A DNA stretch of 64,000 nt from a virus (lineage: Duplodnaviria; Heunggongvirae; Uroviricota; Caudoviricetes), in IMG/VR virus record IMGVR_UViG_3300032167_000028; one strand, written 5' to 3'. Shown here piece after piece: positions 26,893 through 45,025 of the stretch; the first letter of the stretch is position 1, and the number at the start of each line of letters is the position of its first letter. The position numbers were made by a program, and so were the translations under genes. The notes under the pieces are model-generated. The model did not search any database, was not told where the DNA came from, and saw only the letters and a program-made list of their open reading frames with translations.

Positions 26893-26911
26893 TTAGATGT
26901 TGAACATCTAA
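26893..26911. repeat. 19-bp palindrome TTAGATGTTGAACATCTAA (copy 1)
   Basis: exact match; 9 bp upstream of TTGACT -35. Confidence 0.95.
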
Positions 26912-26920
26912 AAACGTGAC

Positions 26921-26949
26921 TTGACTTTTTAGTGGGTATCCTGTATAAT
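26921..26949 (+). promoter_or_regulatory. sigma70-type promoter TTGACT-17-TATAAT
   Basis: hexamers at 26921-26926 and 26944-26949; AGGAGG RBS and ATG at 26992. Confidence 0.7.
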
Positions 26950-26991
26950 AATACTTGCAAGGAGTCCTATAAACAAGAAGGAGGAAAACTT

Positions 26992-27219
26992 ATGAAGATT
27001 TGGATTGTAATGGTATGGGATTGCGATGACTGGGAGATTCTGGACGTTCTGTTCGATAGTGATGCGATTGCACCGCGTGTCACCGAACTGTTCAAAGAGG
27101 AAGAAGGCCGCACTGAAATCAAAGTAGAATGCTGGTATAAGGATCCCACTAATGAAGTCAATGGGTATTTTCTTGATGTTGATGCATATTGGCGGGATGA
27201 TTGGCTGGAGGGTGAGTAA
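26992..27219 (+). CDS. hypothetical small protein (75 aa)
   Basis: MKIWIVMVWDCDDWEILDV...; strong RBS. Confidence 0.6.
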   Translation: MKIWIVMVWDCDDWEILDVLFDSDAIAPRVTELFKEEEGRTEIKVECWYKDPTNEVNGYFLDVDAYWRDDWLEGE

Positions 27220-27233
27220 TCACCCTAATATAA

Positions 27234-27252
27234 TTAGATGTTCAACATCTAA
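27234..27252. repeat. 19-bp palindrome TTAGATGTTCAACATCTAA (copy 2)
   Basis: exact; followed by TTGACA(27262)-17-TGgTATACT(27285). Confidence 0.95.
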
Positions 27253-27320
27253 AAATTAAAATTGACATATGGTCATATTTGTGGTATACTATCCATAGAA
27301 ATAGAAAAGGAGTTGTCTGC

Positions 27321-27488
27321 ATGAAAGTTCTTCTTACTTGGATGTATACGCATCCGCATGAGTTTATTCGTATTGTGTTTTTAATCATCATTGCGGCAAT
27401 CTTTTCTCCTTGGCGTGTAGAGATTCTTTCTGTGTTGTTGTGCTTTGACTTGGTGTTGTTGTATCTGGTTAGAAATTGGAAGGAGTAA
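27321..27488 (+). CDS. small hydrophobic membrane peptide (55 aa)
   Basis: AGGAG RBS; MKVLLTWMYTHPHEFIRIVFLIIIAAIF... Confidence 0.55.
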   Translation: MKVLLTWMYTHPHEFIRIVFLIIIAAIFSPWRVEILSVLLCFDLVLLYLVRNWKE

Positions 27489-27492
27489 AATT

Positions 27493-27771
27493 ATGACCAT
27501 TACTGTTGTTATCGAAGAAAATCATGGCCCTATCATTTATGCTAAGAATGATGACGCGGCAAAGCGTGCCCTGTTGGAAACGAATTGGGTAGACCAGTTC
27601 TCTGATGTATGGTGTCCTGATATGAGTGAAGATGCTCTCATGGATGCCGGAGACTTCCGTGCATTGAAGGATGTCTATGGTGATAATTGGGAAGAGCAGT
27701 ATCTTTCCTTTGATCATACTAAGCTGGAATTGATGGGTTATCATTTTTATACCGTAGAGTTGTACGAATAA
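27493..27771 (+). CDS. hypothetical protein (92 aa)
   Basis: GGAAGGAG RBS; MTITVVIEENHGPIIYAKNDD... Confidence 0.6.
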   Translation: MTITVVIEENHGPIIYAKNDDAAKRALLETNWVDQFSDVWCPDMSEDALMDAGDFRALKDVYGDNWEEQYLSFDHTKLELMGYHFYTVELYE

Positions 27772-27789
27772 TCGTACACTCCTTTTTTA

Positions 27790-27808
27790 TTAGATGTTGA
27801 ACATCTAA
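27790..27808. repeat. 19-bp palindrome (copy 3, G centre)
   Basis: exact; this copy has no adjacent promoter. Confidence 0.95.
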
Positions 27809-27827
27809 AAATCGCCTACAAAAAAAT

Positions 27828-27858
27828 AACAGGGGATTTGCATCCCCTGTTATTTCCA
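27828..27858. terminator. bidirectional intrinsic terminator
   Basis: AACAGGGGA-TTTGC-ATCCCCTGTT with T-tracts on both strands, between convergent genes. Confidence 0.7.
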
Positions 27859-28383
27859 TCAGGCACGGCTGTAATACGGCTTGCCCTTCACGACTTCACG
27901 CTTGACCGTCTCGGCGTTGTCCGCGGCGATGTTCTTGAGGTAAGTACCCACCTGCATGACACTGACTTCGGCAAGCTCCGGAATCGCCGCCTTGATGTCG
28001 GTGGTGGTCATCGGCTCGTCAGTCAGATTGACCATGCACCAGTCCTTGACAAGCTCCTGCTCCGCGTTACGCTTCGCACGCTTCGCTTCGGCTTCGGGAT
28101 CGACTTCCTTCGCCTTCTTCTCGGTCTTGGGTTTCGCGTCATTCTCCGCACGGGCGGTGATGGCGGCATCCAGATCGAAAGCCGGAGAAGTCTTGGTGGC
28201 TTCAGTGTTCTTCACGGTGATTTCCACGGTGGCGAACACGGTGTTGCCGTTCTCGTCCTTCACGCCGGTGTCAATGGCGTAGCAGTCCTTCTTGGCAACG
28301 CGAACCGGAATCAGACCAGCAACGGAAGCGGCGATCAGGTTCTCAACAGCGGCATTGGCGGCAACACGAATCTCGTTCTTCAT
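27859..28383 (-). CDS. paralog-family protein A2
   Basis: 174 aa; ITVKNTEATKTSPAFDLDAAI ... KA-rich ... SVMQVGTYLKNI; ~58% GC; two tandem consensus promoters upstream (28455-28484 and 28553-28581). Confidence 0.75.
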   Translation of the reverse strand: MKNEIRVAANAAVENLIAASVAGLIPVRVAKKDCYAIDTGVKDENGNTVFATVEITVKNTEATKTSPAFDLDAAITARAENDAKPKTEKKAKEVDPEAEAKRAKRNAEQELVKDWCMVNLTDEPMTTTDIKAAIPELAEVSVMQVGTYLKNIAADNAETVKREVVKGKPYYSRA

Positions 28384-28590
28384 AGGGTATCCCTTTCTGC
28401 TTTTTAGGTGGTCGCATCACCTGTCGTTTTGTTTTCCTCTCTTGAGGATGTATTCATTATACCAGAAGATTTGGAATCTGTCAAGAGTTTTTTGAAACTT
28501 TTTTCAATTTCTTTTTTCTCTTGTTCTGTTCCTCTCTCTCAGGTACGAATATAGTATACATCAAATTTTAGAAAAAGTCAATGCTTAATA

Positions 28591-28609
28591 TTAGATGTTC
28601 AACATCTAA
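28591..28609. repeat. 19-bp palindrome (copy 4) centred between divergent promoters
   Basis: minus -35 at 28576-28581 and plus -35 at 28619-28624, each about 10 bp from the palindrome. Confidence 0.95.
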
Positions 28610-28618
28610 AAATGGTTA

Positions 28619-28647
28619 TTGACTTTTTGTTTTAGGTGTGCTATACT
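28619..28647 (+). promoter_or_regulatory. sigma70-type promoter TTGACT-17-TATACT
   Basis: drives exonuclease gene. Confidence 0.7.
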
Positions 28648-28677
28648 ATCAGTACCAACTGAAAGGAAGTGCATAAA

Positions 28678-29436
28678 ATGAATGTCGTTGTATTCGACAC
28701 CGAAACCGCAAACATGCAGAAACGTTTCTGCTATAATGTCGGGTATGTTATCCTTGACATTTCTACTGGTGAAAAGCTGGTGGAGCGTGACTTTGTAGTG
28801 GAGCAGATTTGGCATAATGTTGAACTGTTTGCAACTGCCTATTATGCGGACAAGCGTGAACTGTATGTCAAGAAAATGCGTTCGCGTAAAGCGGTCATGG
28901 ATAAATGGGGTTATATCATGCAAACTATGATGCGTGATTTCAAGCGGCATGAAGTGGTTTGTGCGTATGCGTATAACTCTCCATTCGATGACAAAGTGTT
29001 TACCTTTAACTGTGATTGGTTCAAAACTCAGAATCCTTTTGACACGATTCCCATTTACGATCTTATGGGACTTGCCTGCGACTGTATCACGCAGTATGAT
29101 ACCTATCATAGTTACTGCGAAGAACACGAGTTTTTCACCGAATCCGAAACCGAGTATTCCATCACCGCAGAAACAGTCTATAGGTTCATCACCGATGACC
29201 CGACTTTTGTAGAAGAACACACCGCCCTTGCGGATGCACGAATTGAAGCAACCATTTTGATGCATTGTCTGAATATGGGGGCATATCCTGACCGAGAATA
29301 TCCGGTTGTGCATCAGAAACGAGTGATTGAACGTCCGTTCAAAGTGACCGTTGATGGACAAGTTGTCGCAGAAGGAAAGTACATCAAGAAGTGGCGGCGA
29401 GGGGACATTGTTAAATATACGACAAAGAACGGATAA
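28678..29436 (+). CDS. DnaQ-like (DEDD) 3'-5' exonuclease
   Basis: MNVVVFDTETANMQ (Exo I motif), 252 aa. Confidence 0.7.
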   Translation: MNVVVFDTETANMQKRFCYNVGYVILDISTGEKLVERDFVVEQIWHNVELFATAYYADKRELYVKKMRSRKAVMDKWGYIMQTMMRDFKRHEVVCAYAYNSPFDDKVFTFNCDWFKTQNPFDTIPIYDLMGLACDCITQYDTYHSYCEEHEFFTESETEYSITAETVYRFITDDPTFVEEHTALADARIEATILMHCLNMGAYPDREYPVVHQKRVIERPFKVTVDGQVVAEGKYIKKWRRGDIVKYTTKNG

Positions 29437-29453
29437 CATCCGTTCTTTCTTTA
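29426..29453 (+). terminator. intrinsic terminator
   Basis: AGAACGGAT-AAC-ATCCGTTCT + TTCTTTAT. Confidence 0.6.
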
Positions 29454-29462
29454 TGCGTGATT

Positions 29463-29481
29463 TTAGATGTTCAACATCTAA
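29463..29481. repeat. 19-bp palindrome (copy 5)
   Basis: exact; lies between two convergent terminators, no promoter. Confidence 0.95.
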
Positions 29482-29501
29482 TATATAAAAAATAAGGATG
29501 A

Positions 29502-29897
29502 TTATTCATCATCCTTGAACATGTTTCGCATGGTTTCGTAAGTGTGCTCAAACTCCTTGAAGTCCTTCCACTCCGAATCATCGCAGTCGTAATAGTAACA
29601 ACCTGCACCGTATTCAAAGGCATCCTGCCAACCATGTTTGTCCCACGGAGAGCCATAACCAACGGTACGCAGAATTTCGTGCAAGGTCGCCGCCTCTTCT
29701 GCACTGTGCGTCTTGATGTAATAGAAGTCCTCATAAACGAGATTGTCCTCGTTCAGAAGTGGCATCGGTTCGCCGTAGCGGTCGAACAACTTGAATCCAA
29801 GATGTTCTTTGGGAATGGTGGAAACGGTTTCATACAGTTCGCAATCTTCCTCAGAATCGAACTCTTTGCCGTCATAAGCACGATAAACGATATCCAT
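29502..29897 (-). CDS. hypothetical protein (131 aa)
   Basis: AAAGGAG RBS; terminator hairpin AAGGATGAT-TATTC-ATCATCCTT at its 3' end. Confidence 0.6.
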   Translation of the reverse strand: MDIVYRAYDGKEFDSEEDCELYETVSTIPKEHLGFKLFDRYGEPMPLLNEDNLVYEDFYYIKTHSAEEAATLHEILRTVGYGSPWDKHGWQDAFEYGAGCYYYDCDDSEWKDFKEFEHTYETMRNMFKDDE

Positions 29898-29925
29898 ATT
29901 TTTCTCCTTTCATTTGTGGAAGGTT

Positions 29926-30087
29926 TTACCCTTCCACAATCTTCCATCCATCTTTGTCAAGGTTTTCCATTAGATTGGCGGCGAAGGTTACACATTCTTC
30001 ATCCGACCATCCAAGGTTGTTGCGAAGGTTGTCGCACGCCGCTTCAATCGCCGCGTTGAGTACGGTTGTCGTGATAGTCTTTTCCAT
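29926..30087 (-). CDS. hypothetical small protein (53 aa)
   Basis: AGGAG RBS; MEKTITTTVLNAAIEAACDNLRNNLGWSDEE... Confidence 0.5.
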   Translation of the reverse strand: MEKTITTTVLNAAIEAACDNLRNNLGWSDEECVTFAANLMENLDKDGWKIVEG

Positions 30088-30155
30088 GTTGTTCGCTCCT
30101 TTTCTTTTTGTGATTATATTCTATCATAAAAAAGAGAATTTGTCAACAAATACTA

Positions 30156-30174
30156 TTAGATGTTCAACATCTAA
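30156..30174. repeat. 19-bp palindrome (copy 6)
   Basis: exact; minus -35 TGTCAA 30141-30146. Confidence 0.95.
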
Positions 30175-30214
30175 AAATCTTTGAAAATAAAATAAAATAA
30201 TTTCAAAAAACCTA

Positions 30215-30243
30215 TTGACAAAAGTGGCAACATAGTATATACT
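30215..30243 (+). promoter_or_regulatory. sigma70-type promoter TTGACA-17-TATACT
   Basis: upstream of CDS 30292. Confidence 0.65.
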
Positions 30244-30291
30244 ATAATTGTTCCAAGGAACAAAACAAATAAAAGAAAAGAGGAAACAAAC

Positions 30292-30879
30292 ATGACTAAC
30301 AAGAACTTCATCAACCTGCGTTCCCACTATGTACCGGATGAAATCCGCGTCAATCCGTTGTTCAACAATGCTCAGGAGTGCTTTGATGCTATGATGCTGA
30401 GCATGGTTCAGAGATGGTATGACCGTTTGACTGACGATGCCCACAAGGCAATCAGGATTCTGAAGTTTAATCCTACTGTGGTGACTGGTATGATGTTCTT
30501 CACCGACGGTTCTATGGATGAAAAGCCGCAGTACTTCGGTAGCGACTATGAGGACATCGGCACCGAAATGAAGAACTTCGCCCTGTCTCTTGCCCAGAAT
30601 GATGAAGAATACGAGAAGTGTCAGACCCGTGGTTATGTCCGCTGGTATAGCCGCATGGCTCAGTCGATCCGCTGGTATCAGAAGGGTATCGAAGATATCG
30701 AAAAGACGCACGAACTGACGCTTTCCATTCTGCCGCACGAACTGAAAGAAAAGGTTATCGAACAGATTGTGTCTACCGATCCTGTCTGTCAGATGGCGGC
30801 ACGCAACTACTATGAAGCACTGGAAGATGGACGCAAGGACATGCTTCGCAATGCTTTGCAGAAGATGAGGGGTGTATAA
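30292..30879 (+). CDS. hypothetical protein (195 aa)
   Basis: ORF track; own promoter; terminator hairpin 30863-30885. Confidence 0.65.
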   Translation: MTNKNFINLRSHYVPDEIRVNPLFNNAQECFDAMMLSMVQRWYDRLTDDAHKAIRILKFNPTVVTGMMFFTDGSMDEKPQYFGSDYEDIGTEMKNFALSLAQNDEEYEKCQTRGYVRWYSRMAQSIRWYQKGIEDIEKTHELTLSILPHELKEKVIEQIVSTDPVCQMAARNYYEALEDGRKDMLRNALQKMRGV

Positions 30880-30901
30880 CCCCTCTTTCTTTTGCTGGAG
30901 G

Positions 30902-30920
30902 TTAGATGTTGAACATCTAA
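30902..30920. repeat. 19-bp palindrome (copy 7, G centre)
   Basis: exact; GCTGGAGG at 30893-30900 abuts it. Confidence 0.95.
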
Positions 30921-30943
30921 TAATTAGAAATGAAAAAGAGGTC

Positions 30944-31354
30944 TTAATAGACCTCAATGGAGTAGATATACTGTTCTTCTTCCTTGACGAAGGTGTTAAG
31001 CACCATGCCGGTGTCATCAACTTCAAGGAAACGACGAGTGACCCTCTTAGAATCACGACGCATTTCAGGCATGGTCGGCTTCTTCACGGTCGGATACTTG
31101 CGGCGGCTATCATGGGAAGCATAACCAAGTCCGGCGACGCTTGCCTTGATGCTGGTGCGTTCGGTTTCATCGTCAGTCATGAGAGCGGCAATCTGAGCGG
31201 CGGTTTTGTTGGGATGATTCACCATTACGCCGCGAAGCTGTTGCAGATATTCACGATGCTCGATTTCATCTCGGACGCGGAGATCATGCAACTGCATACG
31301 AAGAATGTCCATCTCGTGGTTAGCCTTCTTGCGATTCTGGAAGTGATTTGCCAT
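30944..31354 (-). CDS. hypothetical protein (136 aa)
   Basis: ORF track; promoter TTGACT-17-TATACT at 31399-31427 on minus. Confidence 0.6.
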   Translation of the reverse strand: MANHFQNRKKANHEMDILRMQLHDLRVRDEIEHREYLQQLRGVMVNHPNKTAAQIAALMTDDETERTSIKASVAGLGYASHDSRRKYPTVKKPTMPEMRRDSKRVTRRFLEVDDTGMVLNTFVKEEEQYIYSIEVY

Positions 31355-31436
31355 GTTTATTTACCTTCTTTCTTTTATTATCCCCTTGGGATGATTAGAG
31401 TATATCATAGTATAGAAAGAAAGTCAATACCTTTTA

Positions 31437-31455
31437 TTAGATGTTCAACATCTAA
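31437..31455. repeat. 19-bp palindrome (copy 8)
   Basis: exact. Confidence 0.95.
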
Positions 31456-31480
31456 AAGTTTCCAATAAAAAAGGGGAGGA

Positions 31481-32473
31481 TTACTCCTCACCCATAGGAA
31501 TGTCGATAATCGGAAGAGCACCAGAACCACCCATCATATAAGTCGGGAGAGTACCTTCCCAACGCTGGGCATATTCATAAGCGACGATTTCATCAGTAAT
31601 TGCGGCGGCCTGTGCGGCAATGGCTTCGGCTTCCTTCTGACCCTTATATGCGATTGCATCGGCCTCAAGCTGGGCGACTTCATAATCTGCCTGTGCCTTT
31701 ACCTTTGCGGCTTCGGCATCTGCGTCGGCGTTAATCTTACGAATAGCCGCGTCATTTTCTGCCTGAATCTTGGTACGCTCGGCAAGCTGACGGGAACGCT
31801 CGGTTTCCATTGCCTGCTGGGTCTTATCGCGAAGGGCTTCCTGCTCTGCAACCTGCTTGGCTTCGATGGCATTGGTGTATGCATCGGTGAAGTCAAAGTC
31901 ATCAAGGAACACCATTGCTTCAATGCCATAGTTCTGGGCATACGCAGAAACATGCTCATTGATTTCAGACTGAATCAGAGTACGAGTTTCGGTCATGTCT
32001 TCGGCTTCACGCAGACCAAACGCGGCCTTAACAGAGTTATTTACCTGCGGCTTGATAAGGATATTAAAGTAATCTACGCCGACAGTCTTGTAAATATTCG
32101 GTGCGGCAGAGGGAAGCAGATTATACTTTACAGTATAAGTATAAGTCACTTCCTGAAGATCCTTACTGAAAGAGACATTAGATTCAGTAAAGGTCTGTTC
32201 CTTATTGGTCATGGTAACAATCGTCTGCCACGGCTTGTGGAAATTCAGACCATTACCAAGTGAAACATCTTCGACCCTACCGAACGTAGAAAGGATGCCC
32301 GTATGGCCGGTTGGAACGGTAGAAGTGCAAGCAAGGAACATGGTAATGCCTGCAACAACGAGACATGCAACCATTACGATAGTACCAAGACCCTTGGCCT
32401 TCATCTTACGCAGAATCATCATGGCACACAGACCGCCGACAAGAAGGATAACGGAAAAGATAATTGCGAACAT
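31481..32473 (-). CDS. SPFH / band-7 (prohibitin-like) domain membrane protein
   Basis: N-terminal TM helices, TGHTGILSTFGRVEDVSLGNGLNFHKPW SPFH core, Ala/Glu/Gln-rich coiled-coil tail. Confidence 0.7.
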   Translation of the reverse strand: MFAIIFSVILLVGGLCAMMILRKMKAKGLGTIVMVACLVVAGITMFLACTSTVPTGHTGILSTFGRVEDVSLGNGLNFHKPWQTIVTMTNKEQTFTESNVSFSKDLQEVTYTYTVKYNLLPSAAPNIYKTVGVDYFNILIKPQVNNSVKAAFGLREAEDMTETRTLIQSEINEHVSAYAQNYGIEAMVFLDDFDFTDAYTNAIEAKQVAEQEALRDKTQQAMETERSRQLAERTKIQAENDAAIRKINADADAEAAKVKAQADYEVAQLEADAIAYKGQKEAEAIAAQAAAITDEIVAYEYAQRWEGTLPTYMMGGSGALPIIDIPMGEE

Positions 32474-32520
32474 TGGGATATTCTCCTTTTCTTTTTGTTC
32501 TGTTCTCTTGGAACGATATT

Positions 32521-32549
32521 AGTATAGCATAGGAATATGAAATTGTCAA
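32521..32549 (-). promoter_or_regulatory. sigma70-type promoter TTGACA-17-TATACT (minus strand)
   Basis: plus-strand AGTATA 32521-32526 and TGTCAA 32544-32549; AAGGAG RBS before SPFH gene. Confidence 0.7.
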
Positions 32550-32558
32550 TAATAATTA

Positions 32559-32577
32559 TTAGATGTTAAACATCTAA
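32559..32577. repeat. 19-bp palindrome variant TTAGATGTTAAACATCTAA (copy 9, A centre)
   Basis: one-base variant. Confidence 0.9.
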
Positions 32578-32598
32578 TATTTCAAAGGAAAGGAAGAT

Positions 32599-38943: not shown

Positions 38944-39090
38944 TTATTCCTCCATGGGTGTGACTGTGACAACCGGATCACGCATTGCCCAAAATTCGAG
39001 GGCGGTTTCGATTGCCATTTCTTCATCTTCTGCAACGCCATCCGGCAATTCGTAGTCAACACAATCTTCGATTCTGATATTAAATCTCAT
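38944..39090 (-). CDS. hypothetical small acidic protein (48 aa)
   Basis: GGGGAGG RBS; MRFNIRIEDCVDYELPDGVAEDEE... Confidence 0.45.
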   Translation of the reverse strand: MRFNIRIEDCVDYELPDGVAEDEEMAIETALEFWAMRDPVVTVTPMEE

Positions 39091-39323: not shown

Positions 39324-39390
39324 GTTTGTCAACTCCCTTTAAGTTATGATTTATTATAGCATCTATTTTTGTTTTTGTCAAGAATTAAAA

Positions 39391-39409
39391 TTAGATGTTG
39401 AACATCTAA
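39391..39409. repeat. 19-bp palindrome (copy 19, G centre)
   Basis: exact. Confidence 0.95.
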
Positions 39410-39429
39410 AAAAAGAAAGAAGTTTCTTT

Positions 39430-39696
39430 TCAGAAACTTCTACCCGCTCCACCACCGCGAGAACTGCCGCCCTTAAAACCGCTGGAGGAAGAACGATGAC
39501 GATGAGAACGATGGGAAGAATGACTGATAACATCAGACCAGAACTCAAGCATGACAATAAACTTATCAGTCCAATCCCATTCACGATTGAAAAGCCAATC
39601 GAAGATTGCCCAAATGGTTGCACATGCAACACTAAGACCAAGCAATAGACCAAAAAGAATTGCAAATGCTTTGATGAGTCCGATGAACGTTTCCAT
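39430..39696 (-). CDS. small membrane protein with Ser/Gly/Arg-rich tail (88 aa)
   Basis: AAGGGAG RBS. Confidence 0.55.
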   Translation of the reverse strand: METFIGLIKAFAILFGLLLGLSVACATIWAIFDWLFNREWDWTDKFIVMLEFWSDVISHSSHRSHRHRSSSSGFKGGSSRGGGAGRSF

Positions 39697-39763
39697 TTTA
39701 ATTGCTCCCTTCTTTTATTGATTATAGTGTAACATAATTTTTTCTTTTTGTCAATAATAAAAA

Positions 39764-39782
39764 TTAGATGTTCAACATCTAA
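39764..39782. repeat. 19-bp palindrome (copy 20)
   Basis: exact. Confidence 0.95.
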
Positions 39783-39807
39783 TAATAAAAAGAAGGTTGA
39801 CATTATG

Positions 39808-40224
39808 TCAACCCCTGTGCTTGCGAAGGAACGGATGTGCATTTACAATTGCATTAACTCTCTCCCACTTTTCCGCGGCGTCATCACGCATAGACTGATA
39901 ATTGGTATAGTATACCAAGCGTTGTTTCTTGAGAGTTTCGATTTCCTCAACAATTTCATCGCGTTCTGCTTTGGGCAACCATCGCAGTTCACTTTCTTTC
40001 TTCTCAATTTCCTTCTCATACTTGCGAACGTGCTTCATAAAATATGCACCTGCTTCCTTGTCACAAGTAGAAGCAACATGACAAGCACGAAGATATTCCG
40101 GATATTCCTTTTCAATTTTCTTGTCGATATGCTTGTAATACAAGACCATACCTACACCGCTAAGAATACCACAAAGAACAATGCCGCCAAGGATAACGAG
40201 GAAGATTACATTTTCGTAACTCAT
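39808..40224 (-). CDS. membrane-anchored protein (138 aa)
   Basis: ATG 40222-40224; N-terminal TM helix. Confidence 0.5.
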   Translation of the reverse strand: MSYENVIFLVILGGIVLCGILSGVGMVLYYKHIDKKIEKEYPEYLRACHVASTCDKEAGAYFMKHVRKYEKEIEKKESELRWLPKAERDEIVEEIETLKKQRLVYYTNYQSMRDDAAEKWERVNAIVNAHPFLRKHRG

Positions 40225-40225
40225 A

Positions 40226-40600
40226 TTATTTATCCGTCCTTTCATAATTGTAATGTTCATGAAGTTTGAAGTTGTAACCGCTGGTGGACCGAGAATCAAG
40301 CACTTTAATTTCAAGCGGCATTGTTTCTGCATCTCTATATTTTGCATAGCACGCAGAACAGACTTTCATAATGTCGGTGGCGTGGTCATTCTCCCACATA
40401 AGATAGTAAGAGTTATAACCATCGTCATCGGTAGTATAGAAGGTTTCTACAATGGTGACGTTCTCAGTATAACTTTCAACTTCTTTCATACTGTAATCAA
40501 CCACGAAGTCAAACGCGGCCTTGCCCATACAAAAGACACAAAGAAGAATACCAAGAGTACAAAGAATACTAATAAGTGTTGGGCGGTTGGTTGTTCTCAT
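40226..40600 (-). CDS. membrane-anchored protein (124 aa)
   Basis: ATG 40598-40600 with AAAGGAG RBS. Confidence 0.55.
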   Translation of the reverse strand: MRTTNRPTLISILCTLGILLCVFCMGKAAFDFVVDYSMKEVESYTENVTIVETFYTTDDDGYNSYYLMWENDHATDIMKVCSACYAKYRDAETMPLEIKVLDSRSTSGYNFKLHEHYNYERTDK

Positions 40601-40666
40601 GTTTTCAATCTCCTTTCTTGATGATAATAGTATACAATAAAATTTCAAATTTGTCAATAAATAATT

Positions 40667-40685
40667 TTAGATGTTGAACATCTAA
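40667..40685. repeat. 19-bp palindrome (copy 21, G centre)
   Basis: exact. Confidence 0.95.
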
Positions 40686-40706
40686 TTATAAAAAAGATAA
40701 GAGAGT

Positions 40707-40973
40707 TTAATCTCTCTTATCCCAACCAGTGTACATCCATGCCAACAGGATAGGCCGCACAAGGTCATCACCCGTTTCAACATCTTCAAAGGTCATGATT
40801 TCCTGTGTGTCGATGTTGCGTACAACCAACTGACAATTACTGCGATTCCACCAGAAAGACAGGTGAGCATCAGAGCACTTGAAATCCATGATGTTATTCT
40901 TGATAAGAACATCAGTAAACAGATGAGCATCGTTGATAGTGAGGAAGTTAATACGAGAATAGCTGGTGACCAT
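40707..40973 (-). CDS. hypothetical protein (88 aa)
   Basis: ORF track. Confidence 0.5.
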   Translation of the reverse strand: MVTSYSRINFLTINDAHLFTDVLIKNNIMDFKCSDAHLSFWWNRSNCQLVVRNIDTQEIMTFEDVETGDDLVRPILLAWMYTGWDKRD

Positions 40974-41039
40974 GTTTTACAACTCCTTTGTTCTTTTGAT
41001 GGTTTTATTATACCATGAGATTAGGGATTTGTCAACCCC

Positions 41040-41285
41040 TTATCTCAAAAAATATACATTTAATATTATCAGAGCGATTTGAATAATGTACAGATTCAAA
41101 TGGGTTTTGTGCCGCGTGTTTAATGCAATGCTGAGAATAGAATTTATCAAGCCCAGTATAGGTGCCCACCAATAACCCAGTACGACGAATATTACATTCA
41201 ACACGGTGAACAGGGCAGAAACGTCGCCCCATTCAAATACATACTTTTTCTTTTCAATTCCAAAGAACTCTTTTATGCTTCCCAT
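41040..41285 (-). CDS. small membrane protein (81 aa)
   Basis: hydrophobic; ORF track. Confidence 0.45.
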   Translation of the reverse strand: MGSIKEFFGIEKKKYVFEWGDVSALFTVLNVIFVVLGYWWAPILGLINSILSIALNTRHKTHLNLYIIQIALIILNVYFLR

Positions 41286-41413
41286 TCTTCTTCACATCCA
41301 TCATACCATACACGTTTAATAGTCTTGCCATCTGCGGAAATGAAATCTTCATATCCCATCCAAGAAGATTCTGCTTGCTGTTCGTCAATTTTGATCCAGT
41401 TATCAGAAGTCAT
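41273..41413 (-). CDS. hypothetical small protein (46 aa)
   Basis: ATG 41411-41413 with GAAAGGAAGG RBS. Confidence 0.4.
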   Translation of the reverse strand: MTSDNWIKIDEQQAESSWMGYEDFISADGKTIKRVWYDGCEEEWEA

Positions 41414-41564
41414 ACACAGTACCTTCCTTTCCATCCTCAAAGCCCACGCCATAGCAACCGCAAGGACTTTCATACTCTGTCCAGTTCTTGCCTGCCGCGG
41501 TCAGTTCCCATCCATCCGCGAGCATCTGAGATTCGGTGACCTTCATGCCTTTTTCATATTTCAT
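41403..41564 (-). CDS. hypothetical small protein (53 aa)
   Basis: MKYEKGMKVTESQMLADGWELTAAGKNW... Confidence 0.4.
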   Translation of the reverse strand: MKYEKGMKVTESQMLADGWELTAAGKNWTEYESPCGCYGVGFEDGKEGTVYDF

Positions 41565-41655
41565 TTATTCATCCCCTTTTTTCTTTATTCTATCATATGC
41601 TGGAGGAAATGTCAAGGGGTTATTGAAAAATATTTTTACTTCTTCTAAAAGTATA

Positions 41656-41674
41656 TTAGATGTTCAACATCTAA
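41656..41674. repeat. 19-bp palindrome (copy 22)
   Basis: exact; GCTGGAGG 41599-41606 and TGTCAA 41610-41615 about 40 bp away. Confidence 0.95.
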
Positions 41675-41694
41675 AGATGAAATTGTGGGACTGA

Positions 41695-41937
41695 TTAACA
41701 GTCCCATGTATAGCCGCCAACATAGGGGTCGAATCCTAACTCCAAATCATCCGCGGATTCAGAGCATCCATACTCTTCTTCCACATCGAAATCATCATCC
41801 CAATCCTCATAGGGATCATCGTCATCCTGATCGCACGGAGCCGGGAACATCGGGTCATCGTAGTGGCAACGCGGATAGGCTTCGTTCTCGTCCTTCCAGA
41901 AGTAGCCGCAGTTGCGGCGTTCGCATTCACTCATCAT
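41695..41937 (-). CDS. Cys-rich, highly acidic small protein (80 aa)
   Basis: ATG 41935-41937 with GGAGG RBS; MMSECERRNCGYFWKDENEAYPRCHYDDPMFPAPCDQDDDDPYEDWDDDFD. Confidence 0.55.
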   Translation of the reverse strand: MMSECERRNCGYFWKDENEAYPRCHYDDPMFPAPCDQDDDDPYEDWDDDFDVEEEYGCSESADDLELGFDPYVGGYTWDC

Positions 41938-42092
41938 GGTTTTCGTCCTCCTCTTCGTTCGTCGGGTACATCTCGTCAACCCATTCAAAACCAAATTCTT
42001 CGTATTCGGGGTGCTTCATGTTTATCGCTCCTTGCTTTCTTTTGATGGTTATATTGTACCACAGAAAAATGAAATTGTCAACACTTTTTTAT

Positions 42093-42111
42093 TAGATGTT
42101 CAACATCTAAT
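42093..42111. repeat. 19-bp palindrome (copy 23)
   Basis: exact. Confidence 0.95.
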
Positions 42112-42134
42112 TATGTCGGGGTGGTTAACCCCTG

Positions 42135-42359
42135 TTAGAAATCGTTTGTTTCATAATGTCTGAATGTACCATCGAATCTGTAATACATCACCACGAAACA
42201 ACCATTATCAAACCAAATATCAATTTCAAAGAAATCATCCTCATTACCGGTAGTATATACATCAACAACGTCCGTCATGTATTCGTAACCGTTAGCATGA
42301 AGTCGATCTGAAAGTTCCTTGAAACTGTATTGCGTAAGTTGTTCAACGAACTCTTTCAT
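42135..42359 (-). CDS. hypothetical small protein (74 aa)
   Basis: ATG 42357-42359 with AAGGAG RBS. Confidence 0.5.
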   Translation of the reverse strand: MKEFVEQLTQYSFKELSDRLHANGYEYMTDVVDVYTTGNEDDFFEIDIWFDNGCFVVMYYRFDGTFRHYETNDF

Positions 42360-42587
42360 TTTGATAACTCCTTCTAAAAGCATATTCTTCCGGCGTAAGG
42401 TTGCGAACCTTAACCACTCGGCCGCACAATCCCCGTGATACTTTAACCGCATTCAAAATGCAATCACTCTTAATATAGTACGTCAAACCATTTTGAAATG
42501 TAAGGGCGTAGTACTTCATGGAATCATCTTCTTTCCTTTTGTTGTTTATAGTCTAACATAAAAAATGAAATTTGTCAATACTTGAAA

Positions 42588-42606
42588 TTAGATGTTCAAC
42601 ATCTAA
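42588..42606. repeat. 19-bp palindrome (copy 24)
   Basis: exact. Confidence 0.95.
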
Positions 42607-42624
42607 TTATAAAAGGATTTGGTA

Positions 42625-42804
42625 TTAAACCAAATCCGCGAGTTTATTTTCTACAAAGGCGGCATCTTCAACACGGCAAGTCACCGTGATTTCACCATTG
42701 CGGAAATAAGCAAAGCAAGGAATGCGTTCTGCGATTTCATCAAGGCGTTCGTGAATCAGAGAGGAAAGGATGGTGGGATCGGCGTAAACAGAGATGGTCT
42801 TCAT
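42625..42804 (-). CDS. hypothetical small protein (59 aa)
   Basis: AAGGAGG RBS; MKTISVYADPTILSSLIHERLDEIAE... Confidence 0.5.
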   Translation of the reverse strand: MKTISVYADPTILSSLIHERLDEIAERIPCFAYFRNGEITVTCRVEDAAFVENKLADLV

Positions 42805-43132
42805 GGGGTTGCCTCCTTTAGTTTGTTTTCTTTTCTTTTTGTAATTATATTATAGCACACAAAAATGAAATTGTCAACCCCTAAAATAAAAAATTTCCCG
42901 ATGGAGTTAGCTACTCTCCATCGGGTCGCACCTCAATATATTTATCGCCCGAATCACCGCGAGGCCGTGCAGTGACCGTTTGGAACAGTTATCAAATTAT
43001 AAGGTGGGTTCGTGCGTTGGCTGTTCCCCTTCGCAAGTTGCCCTTACACTAAATCAAGTTTCATCAACTACCTTTCTTTCCTTTCGACATGTATATAATA
43101 ACACAAAATGCTGGAGGTGTCAATAGTCTTTT

Positions 43133-43151
43133 TTAGATGTTGAACATCTAA
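43133..43151. repeat. 19-bp palindrome (copy 25, G centre)
   Basis: exact; promoter spacer contains GCTGGAGG (43110-43117). Confidence 0.95.
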
Positions 43152-43172
43152 AAATAAAAAGGAAAGATGACG

Positions 43173-43445
43173 TTAGTCATCTTCCGCATTCCAACCAACA
43201 TTCACTGCAGAAACATTGGAGCAATCAATGAAGATTTCTCCTGCTTCATTGCGAATGCTCATCAGGCCATAATCAGCAACAAACTGGTCAATCAGAGTGA
43301 TGATTTCAGCTGCCGCACGACTACGCTCATTCTTCTGCTTTTCACGTTCATCCTTGAGCCTTTCAGCCGCTTCAATGAATGCGGCCAATTCATCATCAGA
43401 GCCAACAGAGAAGATGTATTCACCAATACGAACAGAGCTTTCCAT
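43173..43445 (-). CDS. hypothetical protein (90 aa)
   Basis: ATG 43443-43445 with GAGGT RBS. Confidence 0.5.
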   Translation of the reverse strand: MESSVRIGEYIFSVGSDDELAAFIEAAERLKDEREKQKNERSRAAAEIITLIDQFVADYGLMSIRNEAGEIFIDCSNVSAVNVGWNAEDD

Positions 43446-43517
43446 AGAGACTACCTCATTTCTTTCTTTTGATAGCATTATTGTAGCATATTGCAGGCTG
43501 TTTGTCAATGCAGGTTC

Positions 43518-43536
43518 TTAGACGTTCTACATCTAA
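43518..43536. repeat. degenerate palindrome TTAGACGTTCTACATCTAA (copy 26)
   Basis: 2 mismatches. Confidence 0.8.
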
Positions 43537-43559
43537 CTTTTATAAAAAAAGGATTCGCT

Positions 43560-43817
43560 TTACAGCGAATCCGTAGACAGATAACAGCTCCTAACAACAG
43601 CGTTGGCAACCTCACCAGAAAACTCAACATCTTCGAACTCGAAGATCTCTTCGCTATGCAGGTTCTCACAATGCAGCAGCAGGTTCTCATCCCACGAAAA
43701 GACCAGCACAACGTCAGTCGTTTCCAGTCGCAGGTTGTAGTGTTCATACAGTTCATCAGCAGCAGCCAGCATTTCACGCATGGTCAGGTCGAGCAGGCTC
43801 TTCTCAAAGTTCTTCAT
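43560..43817 (-). CDS. hypothetical protein (85 aa)
   Basis: GAGGT RBS. Confidence 0.5.
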   Translation of the reverse strand: MKNFEKSLLDLTMREMLAAADELYEHYNLRLETTDVVLVFSWDENLLLHCENLHSEEIFEFEDVEFSGEVANAVVRSCYLSTDSL

Positions 43818-43847
43818 AGCTTAAACCTCACTTTCAATTCTTAAGAA

Positions 43848-43871
43848 GGTGGAGAGCCTCAGCTCTCCACC
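43848..43871. terminator. hairpin GGTGGAGAGC-CTCA-GCTCTCCACC between genes
   Basis: 10-bp GC stem; overlaps gene 3' end. Confidence 0.45.
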
Positions 43872-44194
43872 ACGATATCCCAGTCCTCCAGCTGTGCGTA
43901 GATTGCACAGCACTCGGAAGCCCACACTTCCCGCGTCGTCGGCTCATAGCAGCCGAACTCGTCAGGGTCAGGAGCCCACACCTTGACCATGCCATAGCAC
44001 CAGTCGACGTAAGCCTTGACAGCCTTCTCAGCTTCATCAGCTTTTACCATGTAGAAACGGCTGTTGCTGTCGTCCATCACAGTGCAGTCATCGCCAGCTT
44101 TGAGAACACGGACGGTGATTTCTTCAGACTCAAGGTCAAAGGAAGCCAGCTTGCCTTCGCGAGTATTGAAGGTGTACTTGTTGATATTCATCAT
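43859..44194 (-). CDS. hypothetical protein (111 aa)
   Basis: AGAGAGGT RBS. Confidence 0.55.
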   Translation of the reverse strand: MMNINKYTFNTREGKLASFDLESEEITVRVLKAGDDCTVMDDSNSRFYMVKADEAEKAVKAYVDWCYGMVKVWAPDPDEFGCYEPTTREVWASECCAIYAQLEDWDIVVES

Positions 44195-44266
44195 AATAGA
44201 AACCTCTCTTTCATGTCGTAGCTTTTTGAAGGGGGAAGGGGGGGAAGGGGCTTTCGCCCCTTCCTG

Positions 44267-45025
44267 TCAGCCGTTAATCTTGACCTTTACGAGCTTGCCG
44301 GTGTCGCGGAACGTCGGCCAGTCATAGGAGTGTTCGTCGTAGATGTGGTAGAGCCAGCTGAGCTTCTTGCCAGAGTTGGCAACCGACTGGAAGTTGATGC
44401 AGGTTTCACCGTTGACCTTAAACCATGTCAGCATGTCGCCCTTGAACTCTTCCAGCCGATAAACCAGCTCATCCATCGGAAGGAAGATGCAGGGATTTTC
44501 GTCGAACTTTTCCCAGCCACGCATGGACGGGTCAAAGTACCAGACCAGCCACTTGCCAGCGTCGCAAGCGTCTGCCAGCACTTGCCAGCATTCATCAATG
44601 CTGATGCCGTTGGCAACGCAACCGCCGCCGCTTTTCAGCTCAACCACGATGCGAGACTTTTCCAGCATATCCGCCGCGTCGTCGTCGCACTGAATCGTAA
44701 TATCAGGCTGACCAGCCGGACGGCAGGCGATATCAACGATATCGAGAGCCAGCCCACGAGCCGCCGCCTTTTTGCAACGGTTGAAAGAATCAGCCGCTTT
44801 TCCGAACGTGCCAGTTGAGCCTTTTTCAGCCTGTCGGCTCAATTCGCCGCTGACGTAATTTTCCCACGCCATGCGGATTGCGTCGCCGCTAATCTGACGC
44901 TGAGAAGTGTGCTTGATGATTCCATGCTCAAACAGATCAACCGCGATTTTCGCCGCTCTGTTTTCCTTCTCTGCCTTTGCTTTTTCGCGGAGCTTTTTGC
45001 TCATCTCAAAATTCGTGTATGCCAT
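44267..45025 (-). CDS. hypothetical protein (252 aa)
   Basis: AGAAGG RBS; terminator hairpin GAAGGGGC-TTTC-GCCCCTTC downstream. Confidence 0.6.
   Translation of the reverse strand: MAYTNFEMSKKLREKAKAEKENRAAKIAVDLFEHGIIKHTSQRQISGDAIRMAWENYVSGELSRQAEKGSTGTFGKAADSFNRCKKAAARGLALDIVDIACRPAGQPDITIQCDDDAADMLEKSRIVVELKSGGGCVANGISIDECWQVLADACDAGKWLVWYFDPSMRGWEKFDENPCIFLPMDELVYRLEEFKGDMLTWFKVNGETCINFQSVANSGKKLSWLYHIYDEHSYDWPTFRDTGKLVKVKING

Follow-up and report, generated by a model that had tools for sequence, protein, structure and literature searches.

We analyzed a 64,000-nt stretch of tailed-phage DNA (hereafter the window) and delimited, between 26.9 and 45.2 kb, 29 transcription units that together hold 39 small protein genes, two tRNAs, and one noncoding unit. 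An earlier note on this DNA had counted about 35 single-gene cassettes; 16 of our 29 predicted units are monocistronic, eight bicistronic, two tricistronic, and three without a protein gene (the tRNA unit, the ~200-nt noncoding unit, and a tandem promoter). Gene calls made independently in public assemblies match this picture. A unit runs from a near-consensus sigma-A promoter through a strong Shine-Dalgarno sequence and one to three ORFan genes to a hairpin terminator, and nearly every junction carries a palindrome, the putative operator. Four units lack the palindrome (promoters at 45177, 42877, 41035, and 37482), and three copies lack a promoter (27792, 29465, and 30904), each flanked by convergent terminators. 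The terms early, monocistronic, and shut-off, as applied to these units, are predictions from sequence.

At the left end, unit 29 (+, 26895–27225) consists of an operator (26895–26909), a promoter (26921–26949; gap of 11 nt), a 75-aa gene (26992–27219), and a hairpin (27210–27225). Unit 28 (+, 27236–27786) has its operator at 27236–27250, promoter at 27262–27290 (gap 11), genes for a 55-aa membrane protein (27321–27488) and a 92-aa protein (27493–27771), and a terminator with a T-run (27761–27778). An operator without a promoter (27792–27806) lies between this terminator and that of unit 27 (−, 27828–28607; terminator 27828–27858), which encodes a 174-aa winged-helix paralog (27859–28383) behind tandem promoters (28456–28484 and 28553–28581). 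Its operator (28593–28607) is shared with unit 26 (+, 28593–29455; promoter 28619–28647, 252-aa gene 28678–29436, terminator 29429–29447) and stands 11 nt from each of the two divergent promoters. A further operator between convergent terminators (29465–29479) precedes unit 25 (−, 29494–30172; terminator 29494–29516, genes of 131 aa at 29502–29897 and 53 aa at 29926–30087, promoter 30118–30146), whose operator (30158–30172) also serves unit 24 (+, 30158–30893) at a gap of 42 nt (promoter 30215–30243, 195-aa gene 30292–30879, terminator 30867–30885). The third such operator (30904–30918) again lies between convergent terminators.

All remaining units are on the minus strand. Unit 23 (30938–31453) has a terminator (30938–30955), a 136-aa gene (30944–31354), a promoter (31399–31427), and an operator (31439–31453); unit 22 (31476–32575) encodes a 330-aa Band_7/SPFH membrane protein (31481–32473) between a terminator (31476–31489) and a promoter (32521–32549), its operator (32561–32575) having A as the center base. 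Unit 21 (32592–33308; terminator 32592–32608, promoter 33254–33282) encodes a 143-aa protein with an AbrB/MazE N-domain (32599–33030) and a 52-aa zinc-ribbon protein (33047–33205), and its operator (33294–33308) is degenerate. Unit 20 (33392–34067) carries tRNA-Lys(ttt) (33392–33467) and tRNA-Leu(caa) (33660–33742) behind tandem promoters (33919–33947 and 34013–34041) and an operator (34053–34067). It is followed by unit 19 (34082–34708; terminator 34082–34097, 166-aa HAD-like nucleotidase gene 34088–34588, promoter 34622–34650, operator 34694–34708, gap 43), unit 18 (34723–35055; terminator 34723–34741, 79-aa basic protein 34730–34969, promoter 35001–35029, operator 35041–35055), unit 17 (35074–36194; terminator 35074–35094, 334-aa exonuclease-like gene 35082–36086, promoter 36119–36147, operator 36180–36194, gap 32), and unit 16 (36212–36874; hairpin 36212–36231, 165-aa winged-helix paralog 36220–36717, promoter 36788–36816, operator 36860–36874, gap 43). 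Unit 15 (36884–37424; terminator 36884–36920, promoter 37339–37367, operator 37410–37424, gap 42) encodes a 133-aa N-domain paralog with a Lys-rich tail (36899–37300), and unit 14 (37425–37482) is a promoter (37454–37482) with neither gene nor upstream operator, from which transcription would run through operator 37410 into unit 15. Unit 13 (37532–38195) contains a terminator (37532–37549), genes of 117 aa (37548–37901) and 64 aa (37916–38110), a promoter (38141–38169), and an operator (38181–38195); unit 12 (38213–38915) contains a hairpin (38213–38234), a 196-aa T5orf172-domain gene (38220–38810), a promoter (38861–38889), and an operator (38901–38915).

Membrane proteins recur in the next stretch: unit 11 (38928–39407; terminator 38928–38953, promoter 39353–39381, operator 39393–39407) encodes proteins of 48 aa (38944–39090) and 78 aa (39087–39323, membrane), unit 10 (39418–39780; terminator 39418–39441, promoter 39726–39754, operator 39766–39780) an 88-aa membrane protein (39430–39696), and unit 9 (39793–40683; terminator 39793–39815, promoter 40629–40657, operator 40669–40683) proteins of 138 aa (39808–40224) and 124 aa (40226–40600), both with an N-terminal transmembrane segment. 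Unit 8 (40694–41035; terminator 40694–40723, 88-aa gene 40707–40973, promoter 41007–41035) is without an operator. Unit 7 (41040–41672; promoter 41587–41615, operator 41658–41672, gap 42) has three genes (41040–41285, 81 aa, membrane; 41273–41413, 46 aa; 41403–41564, 53 aa), and unit 6 (41687–42108; hairpin 41687–41705, promoter 42053–42081, operator 42094–42108, gap 12) encodes an 80-aa Cys-rich acidic protein (41695–41937) and a 30-aa protein (41927–42019). Unit 5 (42118–42604; hairpin 42118–42132, promoter 42550–42578, operator 42590–42604) has genes of 74 aa (42135–42359) and 58 aa (42343–42519); unit 4 (42615–42877; terminator 42615–42637, 59-aa gene 42625–42804, promoter 42849–42877) lacks an operator. 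Unit 3 (42890–43149; terminator ~42899–42928, promoter 43095–43123, operator 43135–43149) is the noncoding unit of ~200 nt, with MKLDLV as its sole ORF, no match in Rfam, and a fold stability that is not unusual (z = −0.7). Unit 2 (43162–43534) comprises a terminator (43162–43185), a 90-aa gene (43173–43445), a promoter (43480–43508), and an operator with two mismatches (43520–43534), and unit 1 (43551–45177) a terminator (43551–43572), genes of 85 aa (43560–43817), 111 aa (43859–44194), and 252 aa (44267–45025), and a promoter (45149–45177) with an upstream A-tract but no operator.

The near-consensus promoters that the earlier note had seen throughout the array were borne out by counting. 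A consensus scan found 83 promoter-like sites in 26.5–45.5 kb (36 ± 6.4 in shuffles), and 26 sites matched TTGACA/TATAAT at ≥11 of 12 positions with a 17-nt spacer (mean in block shuffles: 0.2), 20 of them with an extended −10 TG; the remaining 45 kb of the window has seven sites of this class. GC-rich hairpin terminators at nearly every unit were likewise confirmed (38 found, 15.8 ± 4.5 expected), and 19 of 26 palindromes have a hairpin and T-run immediately upstream on the minus strand; other gene ends show GC hairpins without a good T-run. What had been called bidirectional terminators is better read, at the three convergent junctions, as two separate terminators around a palindrome. Extended sequences common to several promoters do occur, with AAAATGAAATTGTCAA at 32534, 42066, and 42862 (an indel variant at 42563) and TTTTAATATTTCTT..GTTATTTG at 34650 and 36820.

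The key element of the cassettes, noted earlier as one of their parts, is a 19-bp palindrome, TTAGATG-N5-CATCTAA, with 25 copies and one degenerate copy (AGATGTAATACATCT at 33294), confined to the array region. Allowing ≤2 mismatches, AGATGTTSAACATCT has 26 matches in the window where 0.15 would be expected, 25 of these within 26895–43534. The same palindrome, at the same 10–11 nt gap to TTGACx-17-TATAAT, recurs in IMG/VR contigs of 140–167 kb with nearly no nucleotide similarity to the window. The arms are constant within a genome (L018 and L009 have fixed arms and a variable 5-nt center) and shift together, symmetrically, between lineages, which yields three types with the same architecture: T1 as here, T2 (TTATCTG-TTNAA-CAGATAA) in L067 and L072, and T3 (TTAGGTG-N5-CACCTAA) in L069–L071. 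One relative, L074, has both T1 and T2 sites. In 16 cases in the window, the gap to the −35 element is exactly 11 nt, though those 11 nt differ in sequence. Across 425 sites and 339 operator–promoter pairs, including those of relatives, the gap was 9–12 nt in 254 pairs and otherwise clustered near 21, 31, and 42–43 nt, so that the center of the palindrome lies near −54 or farther upstream by about one, two, or three helical turns. The 85 long gaps, once collapsed to 34 unrelated spacer families, are phased at a 10.5-bp period (R = 0.51, Rayleigh P ~ 1e-4; none of 20,000 uniform simulations reached R = 0.57, a threshold above the measured value). The distance to the upstream hairpin is, in contrast, variable; palindrome spacing is tighter toward the promoter than toward the terminator.

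Relatives at ~92–75% nucleotide identity differ by insertion, deletion, inversion, and relocation of whole cassettes. Three-way junction alignments of five deletions placed the crossover inside the palindrome in all five: unit 29 is missing in L062 and unit 12 in L063 (each crossing over within the operator), unit 25 in L065 (at operator 29465), unit 23 in L064, and units 22 and 23 together in L065 (both at operator 30904). The 53-aa gene of unit 25 is relocated in L064 and missing in L062, L062 and L065 carry an additional 163-aa cassette inserted at operator 36860, and the 174-aa cassette is inverted in L064 between operators 27792 and 28593. With operators at almost all junctions, a rearrangement of any cassette would fall close to one, and it is the base-level alignments alone that speak for a crossover in the palindrome itself. 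The longest homology common to junctions is 19–21 bp of perfect identity. The plus-strand genes 28678–29436 and 30292–30879 are each bounded by two operators, one lying between divergent promoters and the other between convergent terminators, an arrangement that inversion between the flanking operators would be expected to leave.

Among the 39 array proteins, Pfam recognized only Band_7, the AbrB/MazE N-terminal domain, and T5orf172; PHROGs added just a few families of unknown function, and neither search gave an assignment in favor of host takeover or anti-defense. The 252-aa protein of 28678–29436 shows a DnaQ-like DTET motif by eye and belongs to phrog_20187. The small membrane proteins, Cys-rich acidic protein, and zinc ribbon were as previously described, judging the translations by eye. 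Of the spread by duplication that the earlier note had proposed, the shuffling of cassettes is seen in relatives, but duplication of genes is limited to a single family of four DNA-binding-like paralogs (of which one lies just outside the array at 25718–26233), and the flanks of the shared promoter elements are mutually unrelated. The small ORFs, whose conservation in related genomes had been proposed as a test, are for the most part missing from relatives at <50% protein identity; this is expected of a hyperplastic cassette region and hence is not evidence against one. The sequence thus supports the description of the array as hyper-modular and early-type, unusually uniform in its cis layout, and encoding nearly all-ORFan proteins, and this uniformity reads as the outcome of selection on a consensus sigma-A promoter and one conserved palindromic element.

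The phage appears to be an uncultured large tailed phage, similar in its terminase to big siphoviruses of Firmicutes and sampled from gut or rumen; its host is probably a member of Oscillospirales, and the array would be its early, accessory ("hyperplastic") gene region. TAG occurs neither in frame nor as a stop in any of the 39 array genes, whereas late genes need TAG read-through, and a sigma-like gene adjoins the array; both points suggest its early character. Late genes appear to translate TAG as glutamine.

Several accounts of the palindrome have to be weighed. That there is no special element and the uniformity stems from a single promoter cassette recently duplicated in this genome is highly improbable: spacer or upstream sequence is common to some promoters, but the palindrome-to-−35 sequence and most spacers vary by copy while element and spacing are kept, the element persists in phages at <50% protein identity without DNA similarity, and three co-varying types exist. 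These observations contradict the duplication account. We consider it unlikely that the palindrome is mainly the site of a dedicated integron- or invertase-like recombinase or nuclease, with no role in transcription. The crossovers, the inversion and relocation, the copies kept at promoter-free junctions, and a symmetry permitting both deletion and inversion would all suit such an enzyme; yet the early proteins and the other window proteins scanned showed no catalytic domain of an integrase, resolvase, or invertase, the 7-5-7 site with its freely variable center is unlike the core sites of tyrosine and serine recombinases, and recombination alone leaves unexplained why the gap is so strictly 11 nt and why the spacing to the −35 element is helically phased. 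The shared 19–21 bp suffice for ordinary short-homology recombination, as in PeSL elements.

A hairpin, too, would show symmetric co-variation of the arms, and the pairing is indeed kept by compensatory changes between the three types; moreover, the element directly follows the terminator T-run, and as a single strand folds into a 9–10 bp stem (−6 to −8 kcal/mol). A role as structure (a hairpin or cruciform in the DNA, or a stem-loop in the RNA serving as back-up terminator, processing site, or insulator) is nonetheless quite doubtful, given that compensatory variation within a genome is absent, all copies having the same arms; such concerted change across a genome points to a reader of sequence. 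The stems are also short and AT-rich with no U-run after them, most copies would be untranscribed if the terminators work, and phasing to the −35 element is a property of duplex DNA. The reader could be a host transcription factor that ties early promoters to the physiological state of the host, as with the Spo0A boxes of phi29, but this too seems improbable. In its favor, no phage protein family clearly co-varies with operator type among the relatives' loci examined, an activator would have to be present already at infection, and L074 mixes two types. However, close phages differ in type (the 171-aa protein of L072, a T2 phage, is 89% identical to that of L064, a T1 phage), which phage-encoded specificity explains more easily; in a survey of one genome per species, the contigs with several copies of the perfect 19-mer were all short, phage-like, and binned into Acutalibacteraceae, Oscillospiraceae, and Bacillota MAGs; and we know of no regulator consensus that the motif fits. 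No host regulon with the perfect 19-mer was seen in that survey, which is weak evidence because host operators would be degenerate. No binding protein emerged from comparisons with operator type: the conserved winged-helix paralogs (171 and 174 aa) do not track it, their recognition helices being the same whether the phage is T1 or T2, and comparing the AbrB-like protein with operator type gave an inconsistent picture.

The reading we lean toward is an operator-delimited early array driven by host sigma-A, in which the palindrome is a putative operator and, as a by-product, a recombination site. It resembles the PeSLs of T4-type phages, whose promoter/terminator cassettes mediate shuffling (PMC2839356, PMC4122927); a repeated 15-bp operator is bound by the master repressor of SPbeta (PMC10516654). 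Under the operator reading, a symmetric, dimeric, sequence-specific factor would bind the palindrome and act on RNA polymerase from one helix face, thereby placing all early promoters under joint control. The three promoter-free operators and the four operator-free promoters of the window count against this reading, as does the mixture of T1 and T2 sites in L074. Shut-off would be its most likely action, since the promoters are already of consensus strength, with activation the alternative; it might block the alpha-CTD/UP-element contact or hold polymerase at the promoter. Phage phi29 p4 holds polymerase in this way at A2c. Cassettes would be exchanged by short-homology recombination between palindrome copies; because the palindrome equals its reverse complement, recombination between any pair of copies could give either a deletion or an inversion, and inversion may account for the plus-strand genes within a minus-strand array.

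We counted 29 transcription units at 26.9-45.2 kb, together holding 39 protein genes (30-334 aa), 2 tRNAs and one ~200-nt unit without an ORF. An earlier note on this DNA had described about 35 single-gene cassettes, a description that fits the 16 monocistronic units but not the eight bicistronic and two tricistronic ones. The promoter scan returned 83 promoter-like sites (36 ± 6.4 in shuffles), and TTGACA-17-TATAAT with at least 11 of 12 matches was found at 26 sites (0.2 in shuffles), 20 of them with an extended -10 TG. The terminator scan returned 38 sites (15.8 ± 4.5 in shuffles); a GC-rich hairpin lies at almost every gene end, and the predicted terminators are hairpins followed by a T-run at 19 of the 26 junctions and GC hairpins at the rest. 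The palindrome AGATGTTSAACATCT, for which 0.15 copies would be expected over the entire window, has 25 copies in the region and one more, degenerate copy at 33294. All three elements are far above shuffled or expected counts, so that the array of promoters, terminators and palindromes is borne out, and the shared promoter strings quoted in the earlier note are present; what it took for bidirectional terminators are in fact pairs of terminators around a palindrome.

The array is flanked by portal, tail and sigma-like genes. Large siphoviruses of Geobacillus, Enterococcus and Bacillus have terminases 32-37% identical to the one encoded here, as does the gut phage Phass-1. Pfam matches were obtained for only three of the 39 array proteins ("Serglycin" matches were discarded as spurious, arising from the GS linkers used to concatenate proteins), PHROGs were almost empty, and most array proteins are missing from distant relatives. 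None of 50,697 deposited phage genomes gave a relevant match in nucleotide searches with the whole region or with a consensus junction. Public assemblies (JGI, ENA, Logan) record an identical 334-aa protein in at least 40 blocks, on contigs ~99.98% identical to the window, and gene calls made independently on contigs of that identity agree with our curated gene list. The fetched loci L036-L039, also 99.98% identical, show no cassette variation and are therefore uninformative on cassette exchange.

Flanks included, the palindrome spans 19 bp and reads TTAGATG-N5-CATCTAA (7-5-7). In 16 cases in the window, exactly 11 nt separate its 15-mer core from the -35 hexamer, the 11 nt themselves being variable, and the other gaps are 12, 32, 42 (three cases) and 43 nt (two cases). 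Relatives were sampled at ~20 kb each, and all fetched loci yielded 425 palindrome sites and 339 palindrome-promoter pairs, of which 254 have gaps of 9-12 nt; the remaining gaps group around 21, 31 and 42-43 nt. The 85 long gaps were collapsed to 34 families of unrelated spacers, and the phasing of these families was significant at 10.5 bp (Rayleigh test: R = 0.51, P ~ 1e-4), their phase differing by 0.3 nt from that of the 11-nt class; in 20,000 uniform simulations R never reached 0.57, a threshold above the observed value. The palindrome positions relative to the promoter are therefore spaced by whole helical turns, as in class-I-type (helical-face-dependent) upstream regulator sites, and the palindrome starting at 28593 is common to two divergent promoters, 11 nt from each. 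An 11-nt gap places the palindrome centre at about -54, the zone where the alpha-CTD binds UP elements. Such phasing is typical of factors that reach RNA polymerase along a single helical face. Since no promoter strength seems left to gain over the consensus, coordinated shut-off of early transcription is the favoured reading of these sites; activation is a possible, less favoured alternative. No link was found between promoter direction and a G or C as the central base.

An IMG/VR scan found the palindrome in multiple copies on contigs of 140-167 kb that have almost no DNA similarity to the window and share a handful of genes at 27-63% protein identity. In these relatives the arms are fixed and the 5-nt centre is TTSAA, TTWAA or free. 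Long contigs of the three types described below include ERZ27271029 k141_104127 (175 kb, T1), IMGVR_UViG_3300032038_000007 (167 kb, T1), ERZ28436078 NODE_30 (136 kb, T2) and IMGVR_UViG_3300045988_150112 (156 kb, T3). Besides the type of the window (T1), two further arm types were found, TTATCTG-TTNAA-CAGATAA (T2, in L067 and L072) and TTAGGTG-N5-CACCTAA (T3, in L069-L071), and lineages with T2 and T3 encode homologues of the same early proteins as the window. The arms are identical in all copies of one genome, and the changes between genomes are concerted and mirror-symmetric, and on this sequence evidence the palindrome behaves as the target of a sequence-specific symmetric reader. A plain hairpin would instead be expected to show compensatory drift copy by copy, and as a single-strand hairpin the palindrome reaches only -6 to -8 kcal/mol. 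One locus, L074 (ENA ERZ27297684 k141_570077), has six T1 and two T2 palindromes within 9.6 kb, which implies either exchange between palindrome types or a phage with two readers. A more distant relative, the human-faecal phage MT835855 (L043), with a 45% identical exonuclease, has no such palindrome; MT835855.1 has arrays of CTAACTnnAGTTAG iterons at 20-bp spacing (3900-4130 and 8550-8800), and its promoters have the common leader TATAATrTATAyATAAGATAAAGrAA. An IMG/VR single-protein search with the AbrB-like gene of the array did not reach palindrome-bearing contigs.

Several early proteins were weighed as the binding protein. Winged-helix paralogs with a C-terminal DNA-binding-like domain are encoded at 25718-26233, 27859-28383 and 36220-36717 (171, 174 and 165 aa), with an N-domain-only copy at 36899-37300; in the AlphaFold model (pLDDT 83) the C-terminal domain is weakly similar by Foldseek to the DNA-binding domains of ArsR, Fur and TubR, and no PDB sequence was matched by a profile of the family. 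Their recognition helix is identical in T1 and T2 phages and so does not track the palindrome type, which disfavours them. The protein with an AbrB/MazE-like N-domain (32599-33030) occurs in all three types, with T3 copies absent or truncated and none detected in L069 and L070; T1 and T3 have similar N-domains and T2 a different one, the two T2 copies differ greatly between themselves, and the protein does not sort cleanly by type. Proteins limited to the two T2 phages (acidic 75-aa proteins and a nucleotidase) are unlikely DNA binders, and the HTH/DUF6291 protein (23558-24397) lies in a mosaic region unrelated to palindrome type. A conserved basic protein of 79 aa (34730-34969, minus strand) is present in all three types, and its AlphaFold model (pLDDT 82) is weakly similar to ribosomal protein LX/eL20 and to the RNA polymerase epsilon subunit YkzG (4njc_A: TM 0.65, E = 0.55); from this model it may bind RNA polymerase or RNA, and by its fold it is not an obvious DNA binder. 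In a scan of one genome per bacterial species, the multi-copy palindrome appeared only on short phage-like contigs in MAGs of Acutalibacteraceae, Oscillospiraceae and Bacillota, a weak hint at the host, and no host regulon with the palindrome was seen.

The window was aligned with L062 and L063 (~92% nucleotide identity) and with L064 and L065 (~75-80%), and the differences concern whole cassettes: five deletions, one insertion, one inversion and one relocation. The T5orf172 cassette is absent from L063, the 75-aa cassette from L062, the 136-aa cassette from L064, and both the Band_7 gene with its 136-aa neighbour and the 53+131-aa operon from L065. An extra 163-aa cassette is inserted at palindrome 36860 in L062 and L065; in L064 the 53-aa gene is relocated and the 174-aa cassette is inverted, with its ends at palindromes 27792 and 28593. 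These relatives of intermediate divergence were reached through the 174-aa early protein, whose homologues at 60-96% identity form more than 260 clusters. Palindromes are so dense that coarse breakpoints would fall at them by default, and the case for the palindrome as crossover site therefore rests on base-level alignments. In three-way alignments of all five deletions, the relative tracks the upstream flank of the window as far as the palindrome and continues from there along the downstream flank; one small indel, the 53-aa gene in L062, is an exception, with no boundary at a palindrome. Each of the two plus-strand genes within the minus-strand array lies between two palindromes, one separating divergent promoters and the other separating convergent terminators, the remnant that would be expected, judging from the layout, of an inversion between two flanking palindromes. 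The longest homology common to the junctions is 19-21 bp of perfect identity, so ordinary short-homology recombination suffices for the exchange, and no recombinase domain was found among the array and other window proteins scanned. Exchange through a palindrome is free of orientation, hence the inversions.

Other repeated motifs accompany the array. CTCCAGC occurs in 29 copies (4.6 expected) at 22312-48241, mostly between genes (e.g., 26646-26839, 33267, 34680, 36166, 38201, 41599 and 43110), lying within three promoter spacers and beside several palindromes, clustering at 26.6-26.8 kb, and recurring in T1 and T3 relatives. Where the plus- and minus-strand early units diverge (26340-26830), extremely AT-rich "aaataaaat" repeats extend over ~300 bp and give way to a GC-rich block made up of CCAGCTT/CTCCAGC repeats; the stretch is a possible origin of replication, or else a region for packaging or a terminal one. 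Directly 3′ of the -35 hexamer, several promoters carry AAAATGAAATTG (reverse complement CAATTTCATTTT), found in the spacers at 32534, 42066, 42563 and 42862 and three times near 24.65 kb (24600-24731), and T3 relatives share this spacer as TTGACAATTTCATTTT. The unit without an ORF (42890-43095, minus strand) has its own palindrome, promoter and terminator, with no reading frame past MKLDLV, and may be a small RNA gene; it has no Rfam match and its fold is not unusually stable. A search of Rfam at gathering and relaxed thresholds matched only the two tRNAs. After the tRNA-Lys, a tRNA-like remnant (33310-33385, minus strand) has a T-arm (GGTTCAAATCC), acceptor-like pairing and CTA in a putative anticodon loop; neither ARAGORN nor Rfam called it, and it is worth checking as a putative degenerate suppressor tRNA.

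Outside the array, in-frame TAG interrupts late and structural genes (14752-17787, 18645-20534, 23558-24397, 45275-46798, 47531-49498 and 49486-51054). Read-through of TAG yields an intact portal (phrog_2739, E = 3e-69, residues 16-514), a full terminase, the sigma-like protein (phrog_5767) and two long repeat proteins (1012 aa, and a fibre-like one of 630 aa), and in repeats TAG aligns with CAG (Gln), a pattern in the reading frames that points to late genes in which TAG is recoded as Gln. The 39 early genes neither contain TAG nor end in it (stop codons: 28 TAA and 11 TGA). We infer that the array may be expressed immediately by unmodified host machinery, to be followed by a recoding-dependent programme under the phage sigma-like factor. 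The gene for that factor (45275-46798, plus strand) adjoins the array and has five in-frame TAG codons and a C-terminal zinc-ribbon/HNH-like tail, and its homologues in two fetched relatives (L018 and L028) have, by eye, an apparent sigma-70 region-4-like HTH. On the minus strand (294-869 and 1381-2457), a PurZ-like homologue of adenylosuccinate synthetase (phrog_1211, "2-aminooxy adenylosuccinate synthetase", E = 2e-33; Pfam Adenylsucc_synt, 3e-16) is encoded near a DUF5662 protein, and the phage may replace adenine with 2-aminoadenine.

In function, the array is closest to the promoter-early stem-loops (PeSLs) of T4-type phages (Arbiol et al. 2010, PMC2839356; Comeau et al. 2014, PMC4122927), composites of a strong sigma-70 promoter and a stem-loop that precede ORFans, are concentrated in hyperplastic regions and mediate indels between relatives. 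In both systems, dense terminator and consensus sigma-70 promoter motifs stand ahead of small ORFans and cluster where the genome is most variable, and the boundaries of indels or replacements between related phages fall in the motif. Five arrangements of promoter and stem-loop are described for PeSLs, none with such an additional operator-like site (PMC2839356, PMC4122927), whereas here an extra, separate and perfectly conserved 19-bp palindrome, a putative operator, helically phased and co-varying symmetrically between lineages, lies between terminator and promoter, inversions are seen, and the phage is a siphovirus-like phage of Firmicutes rather than a T4-like myovirus. Since the terminase is closest (~32-37%) to large siphoviruses and not to T4-like myoviruses, the array is an analogue of PeSLs, neither homologous to them nor a member of the group.

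The 15-bp repeated operator SPBRE of Bacillus phage SPbeta, which is bound by the master repressor MrpR, was likewise proposed as a repressor site from sequence and was later confirmed by ChAP-seq and EMSA (PMC10516654). In a large Firmicute phage, it too is a short motif that recurs between genes, in the promoter regions of many early genes; however, it has ~9-10 copies, compared with ~26 palindromes per genome at nearly every cassette junction here, and neither strict helical phasing nor a role at recombination junctions is reported for it. Among the proteins scanned in the window, which is part of the genome, there was no MrpR-like protein (tyrosine-recombinase fold) and no Phage_integrase-like match. 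The stoperators of cluster A mycobacteriophages (the L5 gp71 sites) are asymmetric 13-14-mers that are oriented with transcription and block elongation. The array resembles them in having dozens of intergenic copies of one short, here putative, repressor site, but its site is a perfect palindrome locked to the promoter -35. The host-takeover module of Bacillus phage SPO1 and the early genes in the terminal repeats of Kayvirus/Herelleviridae resemble the array in that small early genes are grouped into operons, every one with a strong sigma-A promoter and a terminator. No protein homology to the SPO1/Kayvirus modules was found, and we know of, and found, no description of a repeated palindromic operator in them. 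Integron arrays also consist of small ORFan cassettes bounded by a repeated palindromic site of gain and loss, but their cassettes are promoterless and end in attC, which is structured and imperfect, whereas the cassettes here have their own promoters and terminators and a short perfect duplex palindrome; neither an IntI integrase nor an attI site nor a common Pc promoter was found.

Early "ORFan" regions are the store from which phages draw host-takeover and anti-defence genes, and to our knowledge their assembly and control are poorly understood outside T4. Here the cis-logic is readable from sequence, with one consensus host promoter per cassette and a single kind of palindromic site phase-locked to these promoters, at more than 400 places in many uncultured phages; base-level evidence identifies the palindrome as the point of cassette swaps and flips. 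The most far-reaching reading, which we hold tentatively and judge rather unlikely to be correct, is that in a clade of uncultured gut and rumen phages one 19-bp palindrome serves as both a genome-wide operator and an orientation-independent crossover site, the operator being read by a new co-evolving phage factor that would switch all early promoters from a fixed helical face, so that the early region would be a self-regulating, integron-like exchange platform. The array yields a compact set of promoter, operator and terminator parts for Firmicutes, an easy way to mark out functional cassettes in metagenomic phages when their small proteins are screened, and a candidate global early-gene switch, with the three co-varying palindrome types as a natural experiment for finding the binding protein. 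Under the far-reaching reading, a cassette recombining in through the palindrome would come already wired into the temporal programme, and switches among the three types would mark separate groups of exchange and regulation among co-infecting phages.
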